Source of the DNA: an uncultured Luteolibacter sp.
GTDB lineage: Bacteria > Verrucomicrobiota > Verrucomicrobiia > Verrucomicrobiales > Akkermansiaceae
Assembly (NCBI GenBank): GCA_964554865.1
Contig: CAZKQK010000003.1
Location: 22,931-86,930, forward strand
Reading direction: 5' to 3'
Length of the DNA: 64,000 bases
The notes under the pieces were generated by a model. That model did not search any database, was not told where the DNA came from, and saw nothing but the letters and a program-made list of their open reading frames with translations. Position 1 is the stretch's first letter. Each line of letters opens with the position of its first letter. The translations under genes and the position numbers were made by a program. This document shows positions 6,284 through 33,546 of the stretch, in pieces.

Positions 6284-6504
6284 TCGGTCCCGACGGCAAA
6301 CTCCGCCGCCTTCACAAGGGCGGAGATCCTCCGAAACCGGTAGCGCCGCCGCCGCCTGTCCGGGATTCGTCCAGAGTGATCGCCAAGGAGGGCGAGACGG
6401 CGCGCCGCGACGCGTTGATGCGGGCCGGATACGCTTCCACCGTCAAACCGAAGAGCCTGCTCGGTTCTGCCGACCAACCCGGAACCAAGTCCCTTCTGGG
6501 CTGA
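6241..6504 (+). CDS. Small Pro-rich virion protein preceding the portal (gp7.3-like position)
   Basis: GGDPPKPVAPPPP...KSLLG pattern and position just upstream of the portal; start uncertain. Confidence 0.55.
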   Translation: MQHELSGPFFTPDLIGPDGKLRRLHKGGDPPKPVAPPPPVRDSSRVIAKEGETARRDALMRAGYASTVKPKSLLGSADQPGTKSLLG

Positions 6505-28292: not shown

Positions 28293-29492
28293 TCATCCCG
28301 CCGGGTTTAACGGTTTCATTGAGAAATACGGAAGCGATTGAATCGCCCGGTCGAGGGCCTCGTCGTGGTGGGTGTAATTGGCGTGAATCCCGGCGCTCTT
28401 GTGTCCGGTGAGCTTCTGGCGCACGTCGGCGGCAACGTCCGCATCGGCGAGCCACGAGGTGAAGGAATGCCGCAGGCTGTGGAACGAACGCCTCGCCTCG
28501 ATGCCTCCTGGCAGCGTCACCTTGTCCGGCACTCCGGCGGATTTCATGATTCGCTTGAAGGTGGTCGAGAGCGTCCCCGTGACTCGCTTTGAGAGGTTGG
28601 GGAAAAAATCCCCGTTCTTGCCTTCGATCCAGGCGAGACAGCCCGGCGAAAGCGGGATGACAATCGTGGAGGCGTTCTTGCGGCGCTTGGTTTTTTTCGG
28701 ACGGATCACCAGCCGCTTGTCCGCCACATGCCCGCTGCCGAGCTTCGCCACGTCTCCAAGCCTCAGTCCGGTGGAACCTCCGAAAAGGATCACGCCTTTC
28801 CATTCGTCGCTCGTCTGGGGATGCGAGATCATCCGCCGCACTTCCTCCGGTTCGAAGGGAGCGCGTTCGACTGAATCGTCTTCCGGCAGCGGCCTGATGC
28901 CTTGAGCCACGTTCGCCCGCGCCAGCCCGGCGGCAACCGCAGCGTGCAAGGCCCGGCGGAACGATCTGAGCGCGAGATTGACGGTGGAACCGCGCAGCCC
29001 GCCATCCTTCAGTTTCTGGATGGCCTTGTTGACCTGATCCACGGTCAAATCCCCCACCGGCGCGGATGACACCCGCTTGCCGAGCGCCCCGGTCATGTGG
29101 CGGTGCATGTCCATGTAAACTTCCGTGGTGGACAATTCGACATGGTGTTTCTGGTTGCGAATCCAGCCCATGACGTGATCGGAGAGGCTGACCACGCGGA
29201 AATCCGGATTCGCGTATTTGTGAAGCTTCATGATGAGATCCTGAGCGCGGGCGAGTGTCAGATTGCCTTCGGCGGCTTCCCTGGCCGCGGCTTCCACCAC
29301 GGCGGCAAAGGCTTTCGGCAGCCCTTTCGCCTTTCGGCGGATGTCCCTGCCCTCGCTCTCGAAATCCTCCGCGATCTTTTGAGCCTCGCGTTTTTTCGTA
29401 GCGCCTGTATTTTTCGAGAGTCGCTTGCCGTCCGGCCCGAAATATTTGGCATACCAAAATTCCGAATCCGGTCGCTTGTAAACGGTGGCCAT
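28293..29492 (-). CDS. Prophage tyrosine integrase
   Basis: TGLRLGD (R), FHSLRHSF (HxxR), LTGH and Y catalytic residues; start ATG 29492 (GTG 29510 is an alternative). Confidence 0.93.
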   Translation of the reverse strand: MATVYKRPDSEFWYAKYFGPDGKRLSKNTGATKKREAQKIAEDFESEGRDIRRKAKGLPKAFAAVVEAAAREAAEGNLTLARAQDLIMKLHKYANPDFRVVSLSDHVMGWIRNQKHHVELSTTEVYMDMHRHMTGALGKRVSSAPVGDLTVDQVNKAIQKLKDGGLRGSTVNLALRSFRRALHAAVAAGLARANVAQGIRPLPEDDSVERAPFEPEEVRRMISHPQTSDEWKGVILFGGSTGLRLGDVAKLGSGHVADKRLVIRPKKTKRRKNASTIVIPLSPGCLAWIEGKNGDFFPNLSKRVTGTLSTTFKRIMKSAGVPDKVTLPGGIEARRSFHSLRHSFTSWLADADVAADVRQKLTGHKSAGIHANYTHHDEALDRAIQSLPYFSMKPLNPAG

Positions 29493-29501
29493 GGGCGGAA
29501 A

Positions 29502-29543
29502 CGTAGACACTTGCCAGGTCCGGGAAAGTCCGAAGTGTCTACG
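29502..29543. promoter_or_regulatory. 11-bp perfect inverted repeat between att and the integrase start (arm-type or operator site)
   Basis: CGTAGACACTT (29502-29512) and AAGTGTCTACG (29533-29543), 20-bp spacer. Confidence 0.5.
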
Positions 29544-29581: not shown

Positions 29582-30862
29582 TTAGGTCGTTGGTTCGATC
29601 CCAACCGCCGGAGCCTTTTGACCCATTGCGCCAAGGTGCGACAGAAACCGCCTAATCAACTCAGACACAGTGTCTTGTGACGGCACTTCGGGAAAGGGGC
29701 TTGCGACAGGCACCGACTCCAAAACCCCCGAAACGACTAATTCGAGTGACGAATCCGGTGACCACTGGTTTCCGTTAGAGAGGCCCGGCAGCTTGGCAGC
29801 GTGTTCGTTCAGCGCGTAGGCGTCCTGATCTCCATAGACGGCGGCCAGAAGCTTCGGGTCGCTGTGACGCATCAGGCGCATGGCCACGGCGAACGGGATG
29901 CCCGATTCCTTGAGTCGTTGCGCATAGGAATGGCGGAAGCTGTGGAAATCCACGATCCTCCCGCGCTCATCCTTTTTCGCGATCCCTGCCGCCTTCTGAT
30001 CGCGGTGCAGGGCATCCATGCGATGCGGGACCTTCACAGCCTTTACGGAGGCTCCCGGATTGCCCGAGGACTCGCGGTGAGCAAGCAGCATTTCGCGCAG
30101 ATCCGAGGGCAGGGGAAGGGGCTGGTTCTCCTTGTTTTTCGTGTGTTCCTCGCGGCAGGTGACGAAGCCATTCACGAAATCGAAGTCCCCCCACAGCAAC
30201 GAGGCGATTTCTCCGCGCCGCAAGCCCGTGTAGTACGCGAGCGCGTAAACGATCCGGCGAGATGGAGTAGCGACACCTAGCAGGCGCTCGAATTCAGCAT
30301 GGGTGTAAGGACGTCGATTCCTTGCCTTGCGCCCCCTTGTCTCAGACTTGCCCACCGAGAGCAGGGGATTGGACGGGAGCCGTCCCGCCTTCACCAGCCA
30401 GTTGAGGAAGGCCCGGACGCACCCAAGGTATTCGTTGAGTGTCTTTGGAGCCTTGTTGCGGTTCTGACCCCGCCAGTTGTTGAAGGATTCCGGGCGGATA
30501 TCCGCCACCGTGGACCACGAGCATTCCCGCATCAGCACGCCCATGAATTTCTCCATGATGCCGCAATAATGCGGTTTGCGCCCCTTTCCACCCAGATCGA
30601 TCACCCATTCCCGCACCAATGTCTTGAGCGGAGCGGAAACGGTTTCCACTTGTCGCGCTGGAGCAGCCAGTCCTTGCCGCTCCAATTGCTTCTGGAGAAC
30701 GATGTCCGCCAGTTTGGACTGTGCAACCTGCTTTTCTGATACCCCCAACGGAACCTCGGCATCCCGCAAATCCCCATCCAGCCTGTAACGACCCGAGTAG
30801 GTTTTTGCGCGAACCCGCTTGCCATCGACCATCCGGCTGCGCTTGAAAACGTGCTGTTTCAT
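29582..30862 (-). CDS. Tyrosine integrase of the small element (integrated-form C-terminus runs through the att core)
   Basis: YTGLRRGE, FHSFRHSY, LMRHS and Y motifs; last residues APAVGIEPTT are the antisense of the tRNA 3' end. Confidence 0.93.
   Translation of the reverse strand: MKQHVFKRSRMVDGKRVRAKTYSGRYRLDGDLRDAEVPLGVSEKQVAQSKLADIVLQKQLERQGLAAPARQVETVSAPLKTLVREWVIDLGGKGRKPHYCGIMEKFMGVLMRECSWSTVADIRPESFNNWRGQNRNKAPKTLNEYLGCVRAFLNWLVKAGRLPSNPLLSVGKSETRGRKARNRRPYTHAEFERLLGVATPSRRIVYALAYYTGLRRGEIASLLWGDFDFVNGFVTCREEHTKNKENQPLPLPSDLREMLLAHRESSGNPGASVKAVKVPHRMDALHRDQKAAGIAKKDERGRIVDFHSFRHSYAQRLKESGIPFAVAMRLMRHSDPKLLAAVYGDQDAYALNEHAAKLPGLSNGNQWSPDSSLELVVSGVLESVPVASPFPEVPSQDTVSELIRRFLSHLGAMGQKAPAVGIEPTT
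29583..29615 (+). pseudogene. Displaced 3' fragment of a tRNA, probably tRNA-Asn; prophage attR and left att of the small element
   Basis: T-arm GTTGG-TTCGATC-CCAAC, acceptor 3' strand CGCCGGA, discriminator G, then CC; implies a 5'-TCCGGCG start typical of tRNA-Asn; no D or anticodon arm upstream. Confidence 0.8.
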
Positions 30863-30872
30863 TGTCTTGAGG

Positions 30873-31064
30873 TTATTGGATTCCGCCGAAAACGAGGATT
30901 TCTGAGAGAAGCAATCTCACACAGCCGCGGACTTTACGAATCGAAATCGATCCGTGGCTAATAGCTCGCTCCACCGTTCGAATGGAAACGCCGAGGATCC
31001 CGGCAGCTTCACGTTTTGAGATCAGACGATCTCCCGAGAATTCATTCACACATTGATTTTTCAT
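30873..31064 (-). CDS. Excisionase-like HTH (HTH_17/MerR-type) protein, 63 aa
   Basis: RLISKREAAGILGVSIRTVER.I..G.I.......VR; immediately upstream of int. Confidence 0.85.
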   Translation of the reverse strand: MKNQCVNEFSGDRLISKREAAGILGVSIRTVERAISHGSISIRKVRGCVRLLLSEILVFGGIQ

Positions 31065-31442
31065 TGCACATTCAGGTTCCGAAAGTGGCGCAGCCGTCAG
31101 GCCCGACATATTCCGGTGATTTAAGGCACGCCGCCAGAGCAACTCCGCCCCTGACATCCCGCCAAAGGCAACCGAGAGCCGCCCAAGGCGACCTGCCGAG
31201 TCTGTTGCCACCTAGTGTAATGTTTCCCCAAAATAGCACGGCGGCGAATTATGCCGGGGATTTTAGTAATGTAAACCGGCCGCAGCCGGGGGTGCGCACT
31301 ACGGGTGGGGGCAAATTGAAATCCCAACAACACCCGGGCGTCTGTGGGCGGATTCAACTCGGAACCGCCCGCAAGCGTCAAAATAAAAATTCAAAAAAAG
31401 CAGAATCCACCCCCTTTTCACGCTGACGCGACTCCGAACGCC

Positions 31443-31518
31443 CCACCGGTACGGCACGGATACCCCGAGGCTTCACGCTCGCCTTTTGGGGGCTCGCTTG
31501 CCTCTCGCCGTCCGGTGG
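31443..31518. other. Long branched hairpin, candidate single-strand origin (sso)
   Basis: CCACCGGTACGGC / GCCGTCCGGTGG outer stem with inner CCCC-GAGGC / GCCTT-TTGGGG stem, just past the rep stop. Confidence 0.4.
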
Positions 31519-31577
31519 CTTGCGACCCTCCCCGCGTGGCGGACCCTTCACCGCTCCGCGCAAAGGGCAATTTCCCG

Positions 31578-32990
31578 TTAGAACGGATTCCGCGCCAGCC
31601 AATTCCTCATCGCCATGCCCACGAAGCGCATGATTTGAAGCGCCGTCCGTGGGGATTGCGCGGAAATCAGTTTGATTCCCGAAAACCTCACGGACCGGAA
31701 CCGCCGAGCCTTGTTCCCATCCCGTTCCAAAATCTTCTTTTTCGGCTTTGGAAACAGCTTGGCCTTGCCCCACTTCAGCCCGTTCGCATGGGGAAACAGA
31801 ATGAGATAATCGAACGCGCGTTGCGTCGCGACAGGCAGGGAATCAAGATCGGCCAAGGATTGGAGGCGCAGCCCCCGAAGCCGATCACGCATTGAGAGCA
31901 AGCCGAACTGCGAAACCAGCGGCTCGCCCTTGGGATCCACAAGCCCCATGGCCTTTGCGGTGGAACGGTGTTTCGCCTCATCCGCCCGCTTCTGGCGCAG
32001 CTTGCGGGCGAGACGGTGCGCGAGGATCGCGGCCCGCTCCGGCATGGGCATTTCCGAACAGACGGAAAGCGGAACGGCCTTGCCGTTGACCTTGCCCCAC
32101 CAACGGCCGGGGATTTCCTCGAAAACGGTTTCCAGAGGCTTGCCCAGGTATTTCGCGAAGTAGCGGGCGATGTTGCCCCGGACCTTTTCCATGTTCCTCG
32201 CGTGAAGGTGCCAGCGCAGATGCTTGCCCCTTTCCTCACCATCCAGACCGACGCAAACCAAGGCGTTCCATTGCGCGGCGATCCAGCGTTGGAACGCGGA
32301 GCGGGTTTTCTCATCTTCCAGACCGTAAAGCACGAGATGATAATGCAGCGCCCCGCGCCGTTGAAGCTCCCGCTTCCACACGAATCCGACATCCGGGAAC
32401 AAACGGGATGCGGTCAGGCGGTTGCAGAGCTTCTTGAACGCAAGATGGACTATGGCCGAAGTGAGGAATCGCACTTCCCCCGGCAGGGTGAGTGCCATCG
32501 TATAAGCCGAAGCGTCCCGGTTGAGCTTCGCGAGATAGAGCATGAGATTGCGGCGGGATGCGTCCGAGAGCGTTAGAACCTTGCCCCGCACACCGCCTTG
32601 ATTGAGGCCCTGATCGCCCGCCATGGGACTGAGATTCGGAATGCCGGGAAAGATCGCCAACGAGGCATCTTTCCAGACTTGGAACAGGCGGGCGGGTGAC
32701 TTGGGGGAATCCGCGCGGGGGCATGCGTTCGGATTGCTGGTTTTATGCACTATAGACAAGCGTGCGGCCTCCCGTCCCGCAGGGCGGGGCGTCGCTGGCG
32801 CGACGCTTCCGCCTCCGCCGACCGTTCGGCGGCGCCCCAAGTCGAACAGTGGCAAATGGCCGCAGGACTCCCTGACAGCCCGATCCCCATGACGAGGAGC
32901 CAAGCCGACATCCGCCCGCGTGGCCCGATCGAAATATGAAAACCCCTCCGCCCCGGAACGCCCGGAGCGGGAAACGCTGTTTCTGGCCAT
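31578..32990 (-). CDS. HUH-superfamily rolling-circle replication initiator (Rep)
   Basis: Motif 1 YTMALTLP, motif 2 WKRELQRRGALHYHL, motif 3 RYFAKYLGK (YxxKY); true start either 32990 or 32624. Confidence 0.88.
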   Translation of the reverse strand: MARNSVSRSGRSGAEGFSYFDRATRADVGLAPRHGDRAVRESCGHLPLFDLGRRRTVGGGGSVAPATPRPAGREAARLSIVHKTSNPNACPRADSPKSPARLFQVWKDASLAIFPGIPNLSPMAGDQGLNQGGVRGKVLTLSDASRRNLMLYLAKLNRDASAYTMALTLPGEVRFLTSAIVHLAFKKLCNRLTASRLFPDVGFVWKRELQRRGALHYHLVLYGLEDEKTRSAFQRWIAAQWNALVCVGLDGEERGKHLRWHLHARNMEKVRGNIARYFAKYLGKPLETVFEEIPGRWWGKVNGKAVPLSVCSEMPMPERAAILAHRLARKLRQKRADEAKHRSTAKAMGLVDPKGEPLVSQFGLLSMRDRLRGLRLQSLADLDSLPVATQRAFDYLILFPHANGLKWGKAKLFPKPKKKILERDGNKARRFRSVRFSGIKLISAQSPRTALQIMRFVGMAMRNWLARNPF

Positions 32991-32993
32991 GCG

Positions 32994-33156
32994 TCAACGC
33001 CCTGCGGAGCCCTCCACGATTGCCAGAATCGCCACCTTGAGCGATCCATTCAAATTCGGCCATGCCTCGACCACCCGCAGCAGCAACCGCAAATCGGGTG
33101 ACGAATCCGGTGACCACCACTCAAGCAACCCGTTGATGTTCAACGGGGAAGCAGTG
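32994..33156 (-). other. Start-less in-frame C-terminal segment of the element integrase, separated by integration
   Basis: Reads (P)TASPLNINGLLEWWSPDSSPDLRLLLRVVEAWPNLNGSLKVAILAIVEGSAGR-stop in the int frame once 29592 and 33157 are joined. Confidence 0.75.
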
Positions 33157-33183
33157 GGTTCGATCCCAACCGCCGGAGCCTTT
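33157..33183 (+). repeat. Right att site of the small element (tRNA 3'-end duplication)
   Basis: Identical to 29592-29618. Confidence 0.92.
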
Positions 33184-33546
33184 CTGAATCAACGCGCTGC
33201 GAGCGGGAATCGTCAGTCAAAAAGTCTGACGGAACGCTTTTTCTCCGGCATAGCGTGCGCGATGGTTCCGGAAAATCCTCCGGACATCCCGATAAGATGA
33301 ACGGCAGGCGGGGGTTGGGGCAATCTCTCCGCCATGAATTTGGATTGGAAATACCGAGGGGCGCTCAGGCGACTTGAGGAGGTTTGCACACTCAAGCAGG
33401 CGGCGGAATGTTCGAACTTGATAAGGAGCCACGACATTCCTGCCGTGCCGCGAAGCGAGATGAGCGAGGAAGAGGCTGAAACGGCGGATTCTTCCACCGA
33501 ACCCGCGCCCCTGCGACTGCGACAGGAATGTCGCAACTCCTTTGGC

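Follow-up and report, generated by a model that had tools for sequence, protein, structure and literature searches.

Comparison of related elements supported a model for the integrase (Int) of a small integrative rolling-circle element: encoded on the circle or across a junction, it bears a conserved C-terminal tail, and integration swaps this tail for residues derived from a tRNA. The element was found in the window (the whole stretch of 64,000 nucleotides that was analysed), which comes from a Verrucomicrobiota genome, and it spans 3,565 bp (~3.6 kb) between its att cores. Our whole proposal, which we regard as probable, combines an int gene that extends through attP, the exchange of the tail, different roles for the two forms of Int and a synthesis of Rep that is favoured on the circle. 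According to this proposal the int ORF would run on beyond the catalytic Tyr343 for ~130 codons through the whole of attP, in the order P-arm repeat, tRNA-derived core, P′-arm repeat and conserved helical-hairpin tail. The crossover would fall within the core, so that int would be complete (477 aa) only on an attP-type junction, either on the excised circle or inside a tandem array. Integration would trim Int to 426 aa, with the last two residues read antisense from the tRNA, and excision would restore the 477-aa form.

The region between the cores contains the tail segment, rep, a gene for a small HTH (xis-like) protein and int, all on the minus strand (Table 1). The cores are exact copies of the 27-nt repeat GGTTCGATCCCAACCGCCGGAGCCTTT, for which 0 matches were expected from shuffles, and their sequence is that of the 3′ end of tRNA-Asn (T-arm plus acceptor). 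A third copy closes, on the 3′ side, an intact tRNA-Asn(GTT) gene (G000:C3:16163-16237), located 6.7 kb left of the window and 36 kb left of the element, past a prophage. The small element and this 36-kb prophage form a tandem array at tRNA-Asn, and tandem arrays were frequent at the tRNAs targeted by related elements. Contigs with the attP junction were not found in the window's own assembly, and none of 87 loci yielded a circular (terminally redundant) contig. There was no match among PLSDB plasmids, and the phage collection gave generic integrase matches only.

Table 1. Positions in the window of the features of the integrative element and of the neighbouring prophage integrase gene
Feature	Coordinates	Strand	Description
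att core copy 2	29592..29618	+	serves both as attL of the small element and as the right att of the 36-kb prophage
att core copy 3	33157..33183	+	attR of the small element; host DNA to the right
int, integrated form	29582..30862	-	426 aa, lambda-Int-like tyrosine integrase (predicted)
Arm-type repeat (putative), int side	29746..29765	-	GTGGTCACCGGATTCGTCAC, 147 nt before the core; encodes WSPDSS
Arm-type repeat (putative), tail side	33098..33117	-	identical 20-mer, 37 nt after the core; encodes WSPDSS
Tail segment	32994..33156	-	51 codons plus TGA; joins int in frame only across an attP-type junction
rep	31578..32990	-	470 aa, HUH rolling-circle initiator (HYHLVLY; YFAKYLGK)
Small HTH_17 protein, candidate excisionase	30873..31064	-	63 aa from the ATG at 31064; directly upstream of int
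Sole sizeable non-coding stretch of the element	31065..31577	-	candidate region for an origin, a terminator or a promoter
int1 of the neighbouring prophage	28293..29510	-	does not extend across the core (context)

Translation of the integrated int gave the 426-aa protein with the C-terminus APAVGIEPTT that the initial annotation had described. The residues APAVGIEP (417-424) are core copy 2 read antisense in the int frame, which places the core inside the int ORF and 3′ of Tyr343; the annotated position of the att site within int was thereby borne out, and the same geometry was observed across relatives. When position 29592 was joined in silico to 33156, the frame was kept and an Int of 477 aa ending in EPTASPLNINGLLEWWSPDSSPDLRLLLRVVEAWPNLNGSLKVAILAIVEGSAGR was obtained. 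After the tail the joined sequence reads TGA CGC ATG(rep), with the tail stop at 32994-32996 and the rep start codon at 32988-32990, so that the frame, the length and the spacing of 3 nt claimed for the junction were all reproduced. Int matched PF00589 (Phage_integrase) with 64.6 bits (cut-off 27.1). Its catalytic residues are R215, E218, K242, H307, R310, H333 and Y343, of which R215, K242, H307, R310, H333 and Y343 were invariant or nearly so. The catalytic domain (187-357) remains whole in the integrated form, and residues 358-426 of that form make up a low-confidence linker running into the core.

An AF2 model of the long Int was built with a 48-row alignment in which tails were entered as separate fragment rows, and it reached a pLDDT of 81; a single-sequence model (pLDDT 37) was not used. 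The predicted structure consists of an N-terminal three-strand sheet plus helix (strands 2-12, 15-27 and 35-38, helix 44-62, pLDDT about 95), a CB domain and the catalytic domain, followed by disorder over residues 358-437 and by two tail helices (444-454 and 461-475, pLDDT 68-79). Pfam gave no match to Int residues 1-90, the putative N-terminal arm-binding region, and the top Foldseek match of the model was full-length lambda Int (1z1b) over 362 columns. The model suggests that Int is a lambda-Int-like heterobivalent tyrosine recombinase. The predicted likeness covers the full-length fold including the N-terminal sheet-plus-helix, and in both systems repeats flank the core at a distance; the attP of lambda is intergenic, whereas here the putative P arm, core and P′ arm would all be translated within int.

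Such repeats were detected in all 10 elements tested as a pair of 17-25 nt, at -145 to -181 on the int side of the core and at +24 to +41 on the tail side, with scores of 16-25 versus a shuffle maximum of 10. The repeat sequence varies between subfamilies, yet both copies of one element match, and synonymous divergence was halved at the repeat pair. The co-varying repeats look like arm-type sites, and since they flank the core inside the ORF, the whole putative attP would lie within the int ORF. A tail that had lost all function, as a decaying remnant or paralogue of the int 3′ end from an earlier tandem element, would leave WSPDSS as a trace of shared ancestry. This idea could draw on the 27-nt repeat D6, on a weak resemblance of the int linker to the tail and on the common tandem arrays at these tRNAs. 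We hold it to be highly improbable, because the tail stands in frame, in the same place and beside rep in every related element and is under purifying selection, and because the two copies of the 20-mer agree even at wobble positions although the tail outside it has diverged, which is the pattern of a DNA site and not of shared coding ancestry.

The AWP.L...AILAIV motif that the initial annotation linked to PVC-group integrase tails proved to be real and widespread. The tail profile matched 2,865 clusters (50% identity) and the tail was present in 24 of the 301 sampled genomes of the phylum Verrucomicrobiota, with no match to it in Pfam, PHROG, NCBIfam or PDB sequences. The tail of the window carries the two-helix motif DLRLLLRVVEAWPNL..SLKVAILAIV and the family consensus reads DL.RVV.AWP.L…LK.AILAIV. 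Related elements span 27-89% identity and target tRNA-Asn, tRNA-Thr and tRNA-Val. The close integrated homologues measure 426-428 aa and end in GQMAPAVGIEPTT, and the distant ones (35-43% identity) have other antisense tRNA sequences as their C-termini. Among the eleven two-copy elements (the window, L008, L009, L010, L011, L014/L050, L016/L079, two in L026, L029 and L081) the distal att copy ran on in its own int frame into the conserved tail without exception, and the circle-form Ints assembled in silico were open in 11/11 cases, with lengths of 459-527 aa. Both conservation and coding-type selection of the tail, on which the annotation had made its claim depend, were found: in the int frame pN/pS was 0.41 for the tail and 0.27 in the motif, versus 1.09 and 1.60 in the other two frames, and the pairwise dN/dS was 0.09-0.32. 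The linker between the core and the arm repeat was weakly constrained (pN/pS 0.62). The extreme C-terminus of the tail was not conserved, which argues against a C-terminal degron. These comparative data support the 477-aa protein as real.

Further evidence came from reading frames. One tRNA-Val core is read in all three frames by three lineages, as MVRAAGFEPA, WCALQGLNLR and GARCRVRT, and every tail in these lineages follows its own int in frame. In tandems of unlike elements the tail of the neighbour does not fit the frame. These frames also bear on the possibility that the tail is not part of Int and is a separate protein or leader peptide of 50-65 aa, translationally coupled to rep and started in both states at an ATG on the core edge or at an internal start, with frame identity arising as a by-product of the CCA-derived ATG. 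In most relatives the tRNA CCA end plus T does form an ATG that opens a 59-65-aa ORF at attR, so that in those relatives the tail could also be translated on its own, and gene callers do predict such ORFs. The best 150 of the 2,865 profile matches were all 52-203 aa long and, among the matches listed, most were 52-130-aa ORFs starting at the core; the tight stop-start spacing to rep would also fit a separate peptide. We nevertheless consider a separate peptide unlikely. The window has AAG in place of this ATG; neither an in-frame ATG from the core onwards nor a conserved internal start is present. In the lineages that read WCALQGLNLR and GARCRVRT, the CCA-derived ATG does not match the int frame and the core edge offers no in-frame ATG, yet the tail is still in the int frame. 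Moreover, a ribosome-binding site at attR would need unrelated host DNA, and the linker length is equal in 6/6 sequences of the Asn/Thr clade, with all length differences in the Val clade being frame-preserving.

The tail as the end of Int was also sought in contiguous form, as the initial annotation had proposed. The int C-terminus, core and tail occurred in one ORF in the metagenome fragments L083, P0125/L089, P0143, P0150 and P0160, but no intact full-length long Int was present in any assembly searched. The contiguous examples were contig-limited or degenerate: L083 is interrupted by a stop further upstream and holds a piece of int in inverted orientation, in L089 a stop lies 16 nt from the end of the contig, and L088 is a pseudogene. 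No full-length protein with the L014-type tail came up in a word-based search. A 475-aa open frame in G273 with a weak tail match was rejected as a false positive, since it is a dihydrolipoamide dehydrogenase.

The principle of an att-split gene is already known. The initial annotation cited SSV1 and the BPs repressor, and both do share it, but the closest precedent is the IntP/IntX system of phage Mx8. In Mx8, attP lies inside int and integration makes a new 3′ end (PMC6070905, PMC4383910). Mx8 and the element, as reconstructed in silico, have in common an attP in int downstream of the catalytic domain, a tRNA 3′ end as the target, and a shorter int 3′ end on integration (intP to intX) with return of the original on excision; arm sequences are described on both sides of the core within the Mx8 int (PMC6070905, PMC4383910), and the putative repeats are likewise placed here. 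In Mx8 Int the antisense T-arm (STGLEPV) lies about 112 residues before the end, with a tandem 11-nt repeat upstream of it. The integrase of Mx9 is reportedly similar to that of Mx8. The two proteins themselves have little in common: BLASTP aligned Int with Mx8 Int over just 152 aa of the CB and early catalytic region, at 25% identity (pairwise E 2e-5), Mx8 was not among the top phage-collection matches to Int, and the C-terminal 112 residues of Mx8 Int had no similarity to the tail and no AWP.L...AILAIV. The element follows the IntP/IntX design of Mx8 with an integrase that, judged by sequence, belongs to an unrelated family. Mx8 is a phage of 49.5 kb and the element has 3.6 kb with rep, xis and int; in addition, unlike in Mx8, the tail stop abuts a rolling-circle rep, and the design extends through a whole family of bacterial elements in Verrucomicrobiota that uses several tRNA targets and reading frames. 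In the fusellovirus SSV1 the att site also lies within int and integration alters the gene (PMC5861418); there int splits into two separated parts, whereas here the catalytic domain stays intact and only the post-catalytic tail would be exchanged. In the mycobacteriophages BPs and Brujita attP lies in the 3′ end of the repressor gene, and the differing viral and prophage C-termini act as a switch (PMC3694055); the split gene is that of a repressor and the part removed is a degradation tag, whereas here the split gene is the integrase.

We infer a functional difference between the Int isoforms wholly from the analogy with Mx8. By this analogy the long Int would be the integration-proficient enzyme, and the short form made after integration might have lower activity or a different directionality and would stabilise the integrated state.

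Rep matched PF23343 with 37.2 bits (cut-off 27.8), and its score against RepSA was 18.3 bits, under the cut-off of 34. In nine elements the start of rep (PF23343) falls at -4 to +26 nt relative to the tail stop. Ribosomes and transcripts that complete int on the circle would pass straight into rep, and Rep synthesis would thereby be favoured in the excised state; replication may in this way be switched on by excision, as the initial annotation suggested. In the integrated element the minus-strand order is tail, rep, xis, int and att, and rep is therefore the first gene and not a cut-off downstream gene. This order permits another reading, in which rep, xis and int form one operon as in pSAM2, transcribed from a promoter that lies immediately before rep in the tail/P′-arm region and is possibly autoregulated by Int; Rep would then be made in both states without an excision switch, and excision would only change the Int C-terminus. 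We take this to be a serious possibility, though somewhat short of an even chance, and an attP/tail-region promoter fits as well as a single xis/int promoter. The order rep, xis, int, attP is the AICE/pSAM2 layout and RepSA is among the Rep matches; rep has its own Shine-Dalgarno sequence (GAGGG) in L008, L011, L026 and L029, L010 has a promoter-like site at the attR edge in host DNA, and the co-oriented ychF upstream lacks a clear intrinsic terminator. On the other hand, no sigma-70-like match fell within 190 nt upstream of rep in the window, and the one large non-coding region separates rep from xis; a hairpin plus T-run in it, right after rep (31276-31289), is kept in L010 and L008. A sigma-70-like match was found in the same stretch at 31248-31275, and no site from the promoter and terminator scans recurred across relatives. 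The tail-rep spacing, kept over large divergence, also points to coupling with the upstream ORF.

The element resembles pSAM2 in that it integrates at a tRNA with the same gene order, encodes an HUH Rep (the weak RepSA match) and has attP at the int 3′ end. It differs from pSAM2 and the AICEs in having no genes for transfer (FtsK-like Tra) and no spread, kor or pra genes, and in its host phylum. The attP of pSAM2 lies directly downstream of int, whereas here it would lie within int, and rep would adjoin int on the circle without an intergenic region. An Int-Rep fusion by read-through of the TGA was rejected as a family feature, since it is in frame only in the window, L010 and L009, and the frame is not kept in L008, L011, L014, L026 and L029.

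More tentatively, and with rather more doubt than confidence, we propose that throughout this Verrucomicrobiota-wide family the complete attP, with its two arm-type sites and the tRNA core, overlaps a disordered 3′ extension of the int coding sequence, that excision rebuilds a circular expression unit of xis, long int and rep, that DNA topology sets both the Int isoform and Rep synthesis and that the conserved helical-hairpin tail is an isoform-specific effector. If true, the element would by itself sense its recombination state and tie replication to excision. The data indicate that an integrase gene able to rewrite its own end is not a myxophage curiosity but has been conserved throughout a large family of integrases that lacks annotation. 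The three-gene system offers a very small model for C-terminal control of directionality, and also one for whether the replication of integrative plasmids is wired to the excision state. For gene callers and island finders a rule follows from the tail: small orphan ORFs that begin at a tRNA fragment beside rep are probably detached integrase C-termini.

The initial annotation proposed that an att site within int swaps the integrase C-terminus upon excision and places rep behind int. Translation confirmed that int in its integrated form specifies a 426-aa protein with the C-terminus APAVGIEPTT (Int-short), and that joining the two 27-nt cores (GGTTCGATCCCAACCGCCGGAGCCTTT, 0 expected by chance) in silico extends the frame to 477 aa (Int-long), followed by TGA CGC ATG, with the ATG belonging to rep. 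The product was identical wherever the crossover fell inside the identical 27 nt. Close Int homologues from Verrucomicrobiota, Luteolibacter and Akkermansiaceae MAGs were nearly all 426–428 aa long with the C-terminus GQMAPAVGIEPTT; they are integrated copies at tRNA-Asn. Metagenome relatives of 35–43% identity also showed antisense tRNA C-termini (for example MVRGTGFEPVTFRV, GARYRVRTCDLPRVKRTLYR and WCALQGLNLRPLPCEGNALPLS). Since the close and the more distant Ints both end in antisense tRNA sequence, the layout with the core inside int is family-wide. The comparative evidence supports well the reading that circle and integrated forms would carry different Int tails, and we consider it probable.

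Features of the element and its surroundings (window positions unless a contig is named)
Feature	Coordinates	Strand	Remarks
Prophage	1-29591 + G000:C3:16238-22930		~36.3 kb, between intact tRNA-Asn and core copy 2
int1 of prophage	28293-29510		
int	30862-29582	minus	PF00589 match; core follows
att core copy 2	29592-29618		27 nt
xis-like gene	31064-30873	minus	HTH_17
Non-coding stretch	between rep and xis-like gene		513 nt
rep	32990-31578	minus	HUH rolling-circle initiator; PF23343 above cut-off, weak matches to Phage_GPA and RepSA
Tail segment	33156-32994	minus	
att core copy 3	33157-33183		27 nt
tRNA-Asn terminator-like hairpin	~33213-33250	plus	
Hairpin 3' of ychF	33420-33545	minus	

The distal att copy was read in the element's own int frame in all elements with both att copies on the contig. 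In every one the tail frame was open and contained the motif DL.R(V/L)V.AWP.L...LK.AILAIV, and the pattern pointed out in the initial annotation was indeed found in the tails of related elements. From the distal core the tail reads KAPAVGIEPTASPLNINGLLEWWSPDSSPDLRLLLRVVEAWPNLNGSLKVAILAIVEGSAGR in the window, MVRAAGFEPAHLPRENGSDSQGDLQKPVPLSQDLSRVVTAWADLSLPLKAAILAIVNTATTKGGQ in locus L014 and WCALQGLNLRVSPGKTPQASQIASQKSDLPPDLRRVVDSWPDLSQPLKDAILAIIGSVAK in locus L029, while that of locus L010 is 89% identical to the window tail. The in-silico circle-form Ints were open in 11 of 11 cases (459–527 aa). The tail is conserved and protein-level selection on it is confined to the int frame: pN/pS was 0.41 overall (0.27 in the motif, 0.62 in the linker) as against 1.09 and 1.60 in frames +1 and +2, and pairwise dN/dS ranged from 0.09 to 0.32. 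Related elements target tRNA-Asn, tRNA-Thr(CGT) and tRNA-Val(CAC). At one tRNA-Val(CAC) core, three int lineages each use a different antisense frame (MVRAAGFEPA, WCALQGLNLR and GARCRVRT; loci L026 4068–14402, L029 and L014), and every tail in these lineages matches the frame of its own int. In tandems of unlike elements (L026, L065/66) the upstream int and the tail of its neighbour are in different frames. We regard this three-frame use of a single core, with tails tracking their own int, as the strongest single point for the predicted Int-long. In the window the core edge is AAG, not ATG, and there is no conserved internal start, so the tail can be translated there only within Int.

Tandem arrays of unlike elements were seen at the same tRNA-Val(CAC) in the L026, L029 and L014 loci, and a two-element array at tRNA-Asn in L007/L009 (183–12250). 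P0004, a 440-aa 'integrase', is a hybrid running from the int of one element through the core into the degenerate tail region of another (ending in EPMGTALIPNLLASRYQP). At locus L006 (474–1601), probably a decaying element, the tail shifts frame after SWPRLS and is joined to a 375-aa ORF that lacks a Pfam match; no rep was recognised.

An exact 20-nt repeat, GTGGTCACCGGATTCGTCAC (WSPDSS), is common to the tail and the int linker; one copy precedes the core by 147 nt, the other follows it by 37 nt, and the element has no third. Such pairs were present in 10 of 10 elements tested, one copy lying between −145 and −181 and the other between +24 and +41; they scored 16–25, and shuffles reached at most 10. 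The repeat sequence varies by subfamily (GACTCACAAATAGACTCACAAA, CCTCCCAAATAGCCTCCCAAAA, AGGCACACAAATAGGCACACAAA), both copies of one element agree including wobble positions, each copy is built from a pair of short direct half-sites, and synonymous divergence is halved at the repeats. We read these as candidate arm-type Int-binding sites, in which case the whole attP would be translated as part of int. An AF2 model from a 48-row alignment (mean pLDDT 81) gave a confident N-terminal sheet and helix, CB domain and catalytic domain, with tail helices at residues 444–454 and 461–475 (pLDDT 68–79). Residues 358–437, exactly the arm-core-arm region, were predicted to be disordered. The best structural match of the model was full-length lambda Int (1z1b), and the prediction fits the picture of attP inside int. 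In Val-type ints (e.g. L014 4365–4392) the linker repeats a second short motif (SVSLPVT, KSLPVAY) besides the arm repeat, which may represent further protein-binding sites inside coding sequence.

At E ≤ 1e-3 the tail profile matched 2,865 representative proteins, the best 150 of which were all short ORFs. Within Verrucomicrobiota the tail occurred in 24 of the 301 genomes sampled and in 22 of the 149 genera, and it had no match in Pfam, PHROG, NCBIfam or PDB. Natural contiguous int-core-tail junctions were found only in contig-cut or degenerate cases (L083 and the metagenome fragments P0125/L089, P0143, P0150/L088 and P0160), which could derive from tandem arrays instead of circles. No intact full-length Int-long was seen in any assembly examined, the targeted search gave no full-length proteins carrying the tail, and the attP junction was absent from the source genome's own assembly. 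The metagenome contig L083 (1–186) has a contiguous int-core-tail-rep junction with an inverted int N-terminal fragment upstream, and represents a rearranged element or else a chimera of the assembly.

The placement of rep behind the tail is conserved: in nine elements the distance from tail stop to Rep start is −4 to +26 nt. The proposal that excision turns on replication is plausible yet unproven, and we lean somewhat against it. A rep-xis-int operon like that of pSAM2 (PMC2440964) is a live alternative. A single sigma-70-like site lies on the window's minus strand, upstream of xis, and promoter scans did not recover it in relatives; a hairpin with a T-run stands just 3' of rep and is kept in L010 and L008. 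Several relatives have a GAGGG Shine-Dalgarno of rep's own, L010 shows a promoter-like match at attR, in host DNA, and ychF lies upstream and co-oriented, a clear intrinsic terminator being absent. In the window (32988–32999), L010 and L009 rep begins in the frame of the tail stop; read-through of the TGA into an Int-Rep fusion was rejected as a family feature because this shared frame is not conserved in L008, L011, L014, L026 and L029.

The att-within-int switch is a known principle with a direct precedent in Mx8, where attP lies within int and integration creates a new 3' end, a change that has been called a switch (PMC6070905); integrases with attP inside int are explicitly exempted in Islander (PMC4383910). 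The element here is a new variant. Mx8 Int, which carries STGLEPV roughly 112 aa from its C-terminus, has no specific relationship to the element's integrase family and lacks the tail motif. Magrini et al. (1999) reportedly found the Mx8 prophage form, IntX, to be less active. In SSV1 int itself is split, whereas in BPs-type systems it is the repressor. In Mx8 int (L090, AF396866) the 11-mer TGTGACAGCGG stands twice in exact tandem (6369–6390) about 80 nt upstream of the antisense tRNA core, resembling the int-side arm repeats of the element family.

Neither ARAGORN nor Rfam detected a tRNA within the window, which covers G000:C3:22931-86930; a third core copy in the genome forms the 3' end of an intact tRNA-Asn(GTT) 6.7 kb to the left of the window. 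From left to right the order is tRNA-Asn, prophage, core copy 2, the 3,565-bp element, core copy 3, ychF and ruvB. As the prophage and the small element use the same att core, the latter may travel with the prophage or be its satellite. Prophage ORFs include products of 2,287 and 1,021 aa, a tail fibre, and endolysin-like and holin-like proteins, lysis genes being among them. The native tRNA-Asn terminator-like hairpin (CGTCAGTC...GTCTGACG) and its T-run are still present right of core copy 3, and a long, near-perfect hairpin with a ~23-bp stem and no U-run lies immediately 3' of the ychF stop.
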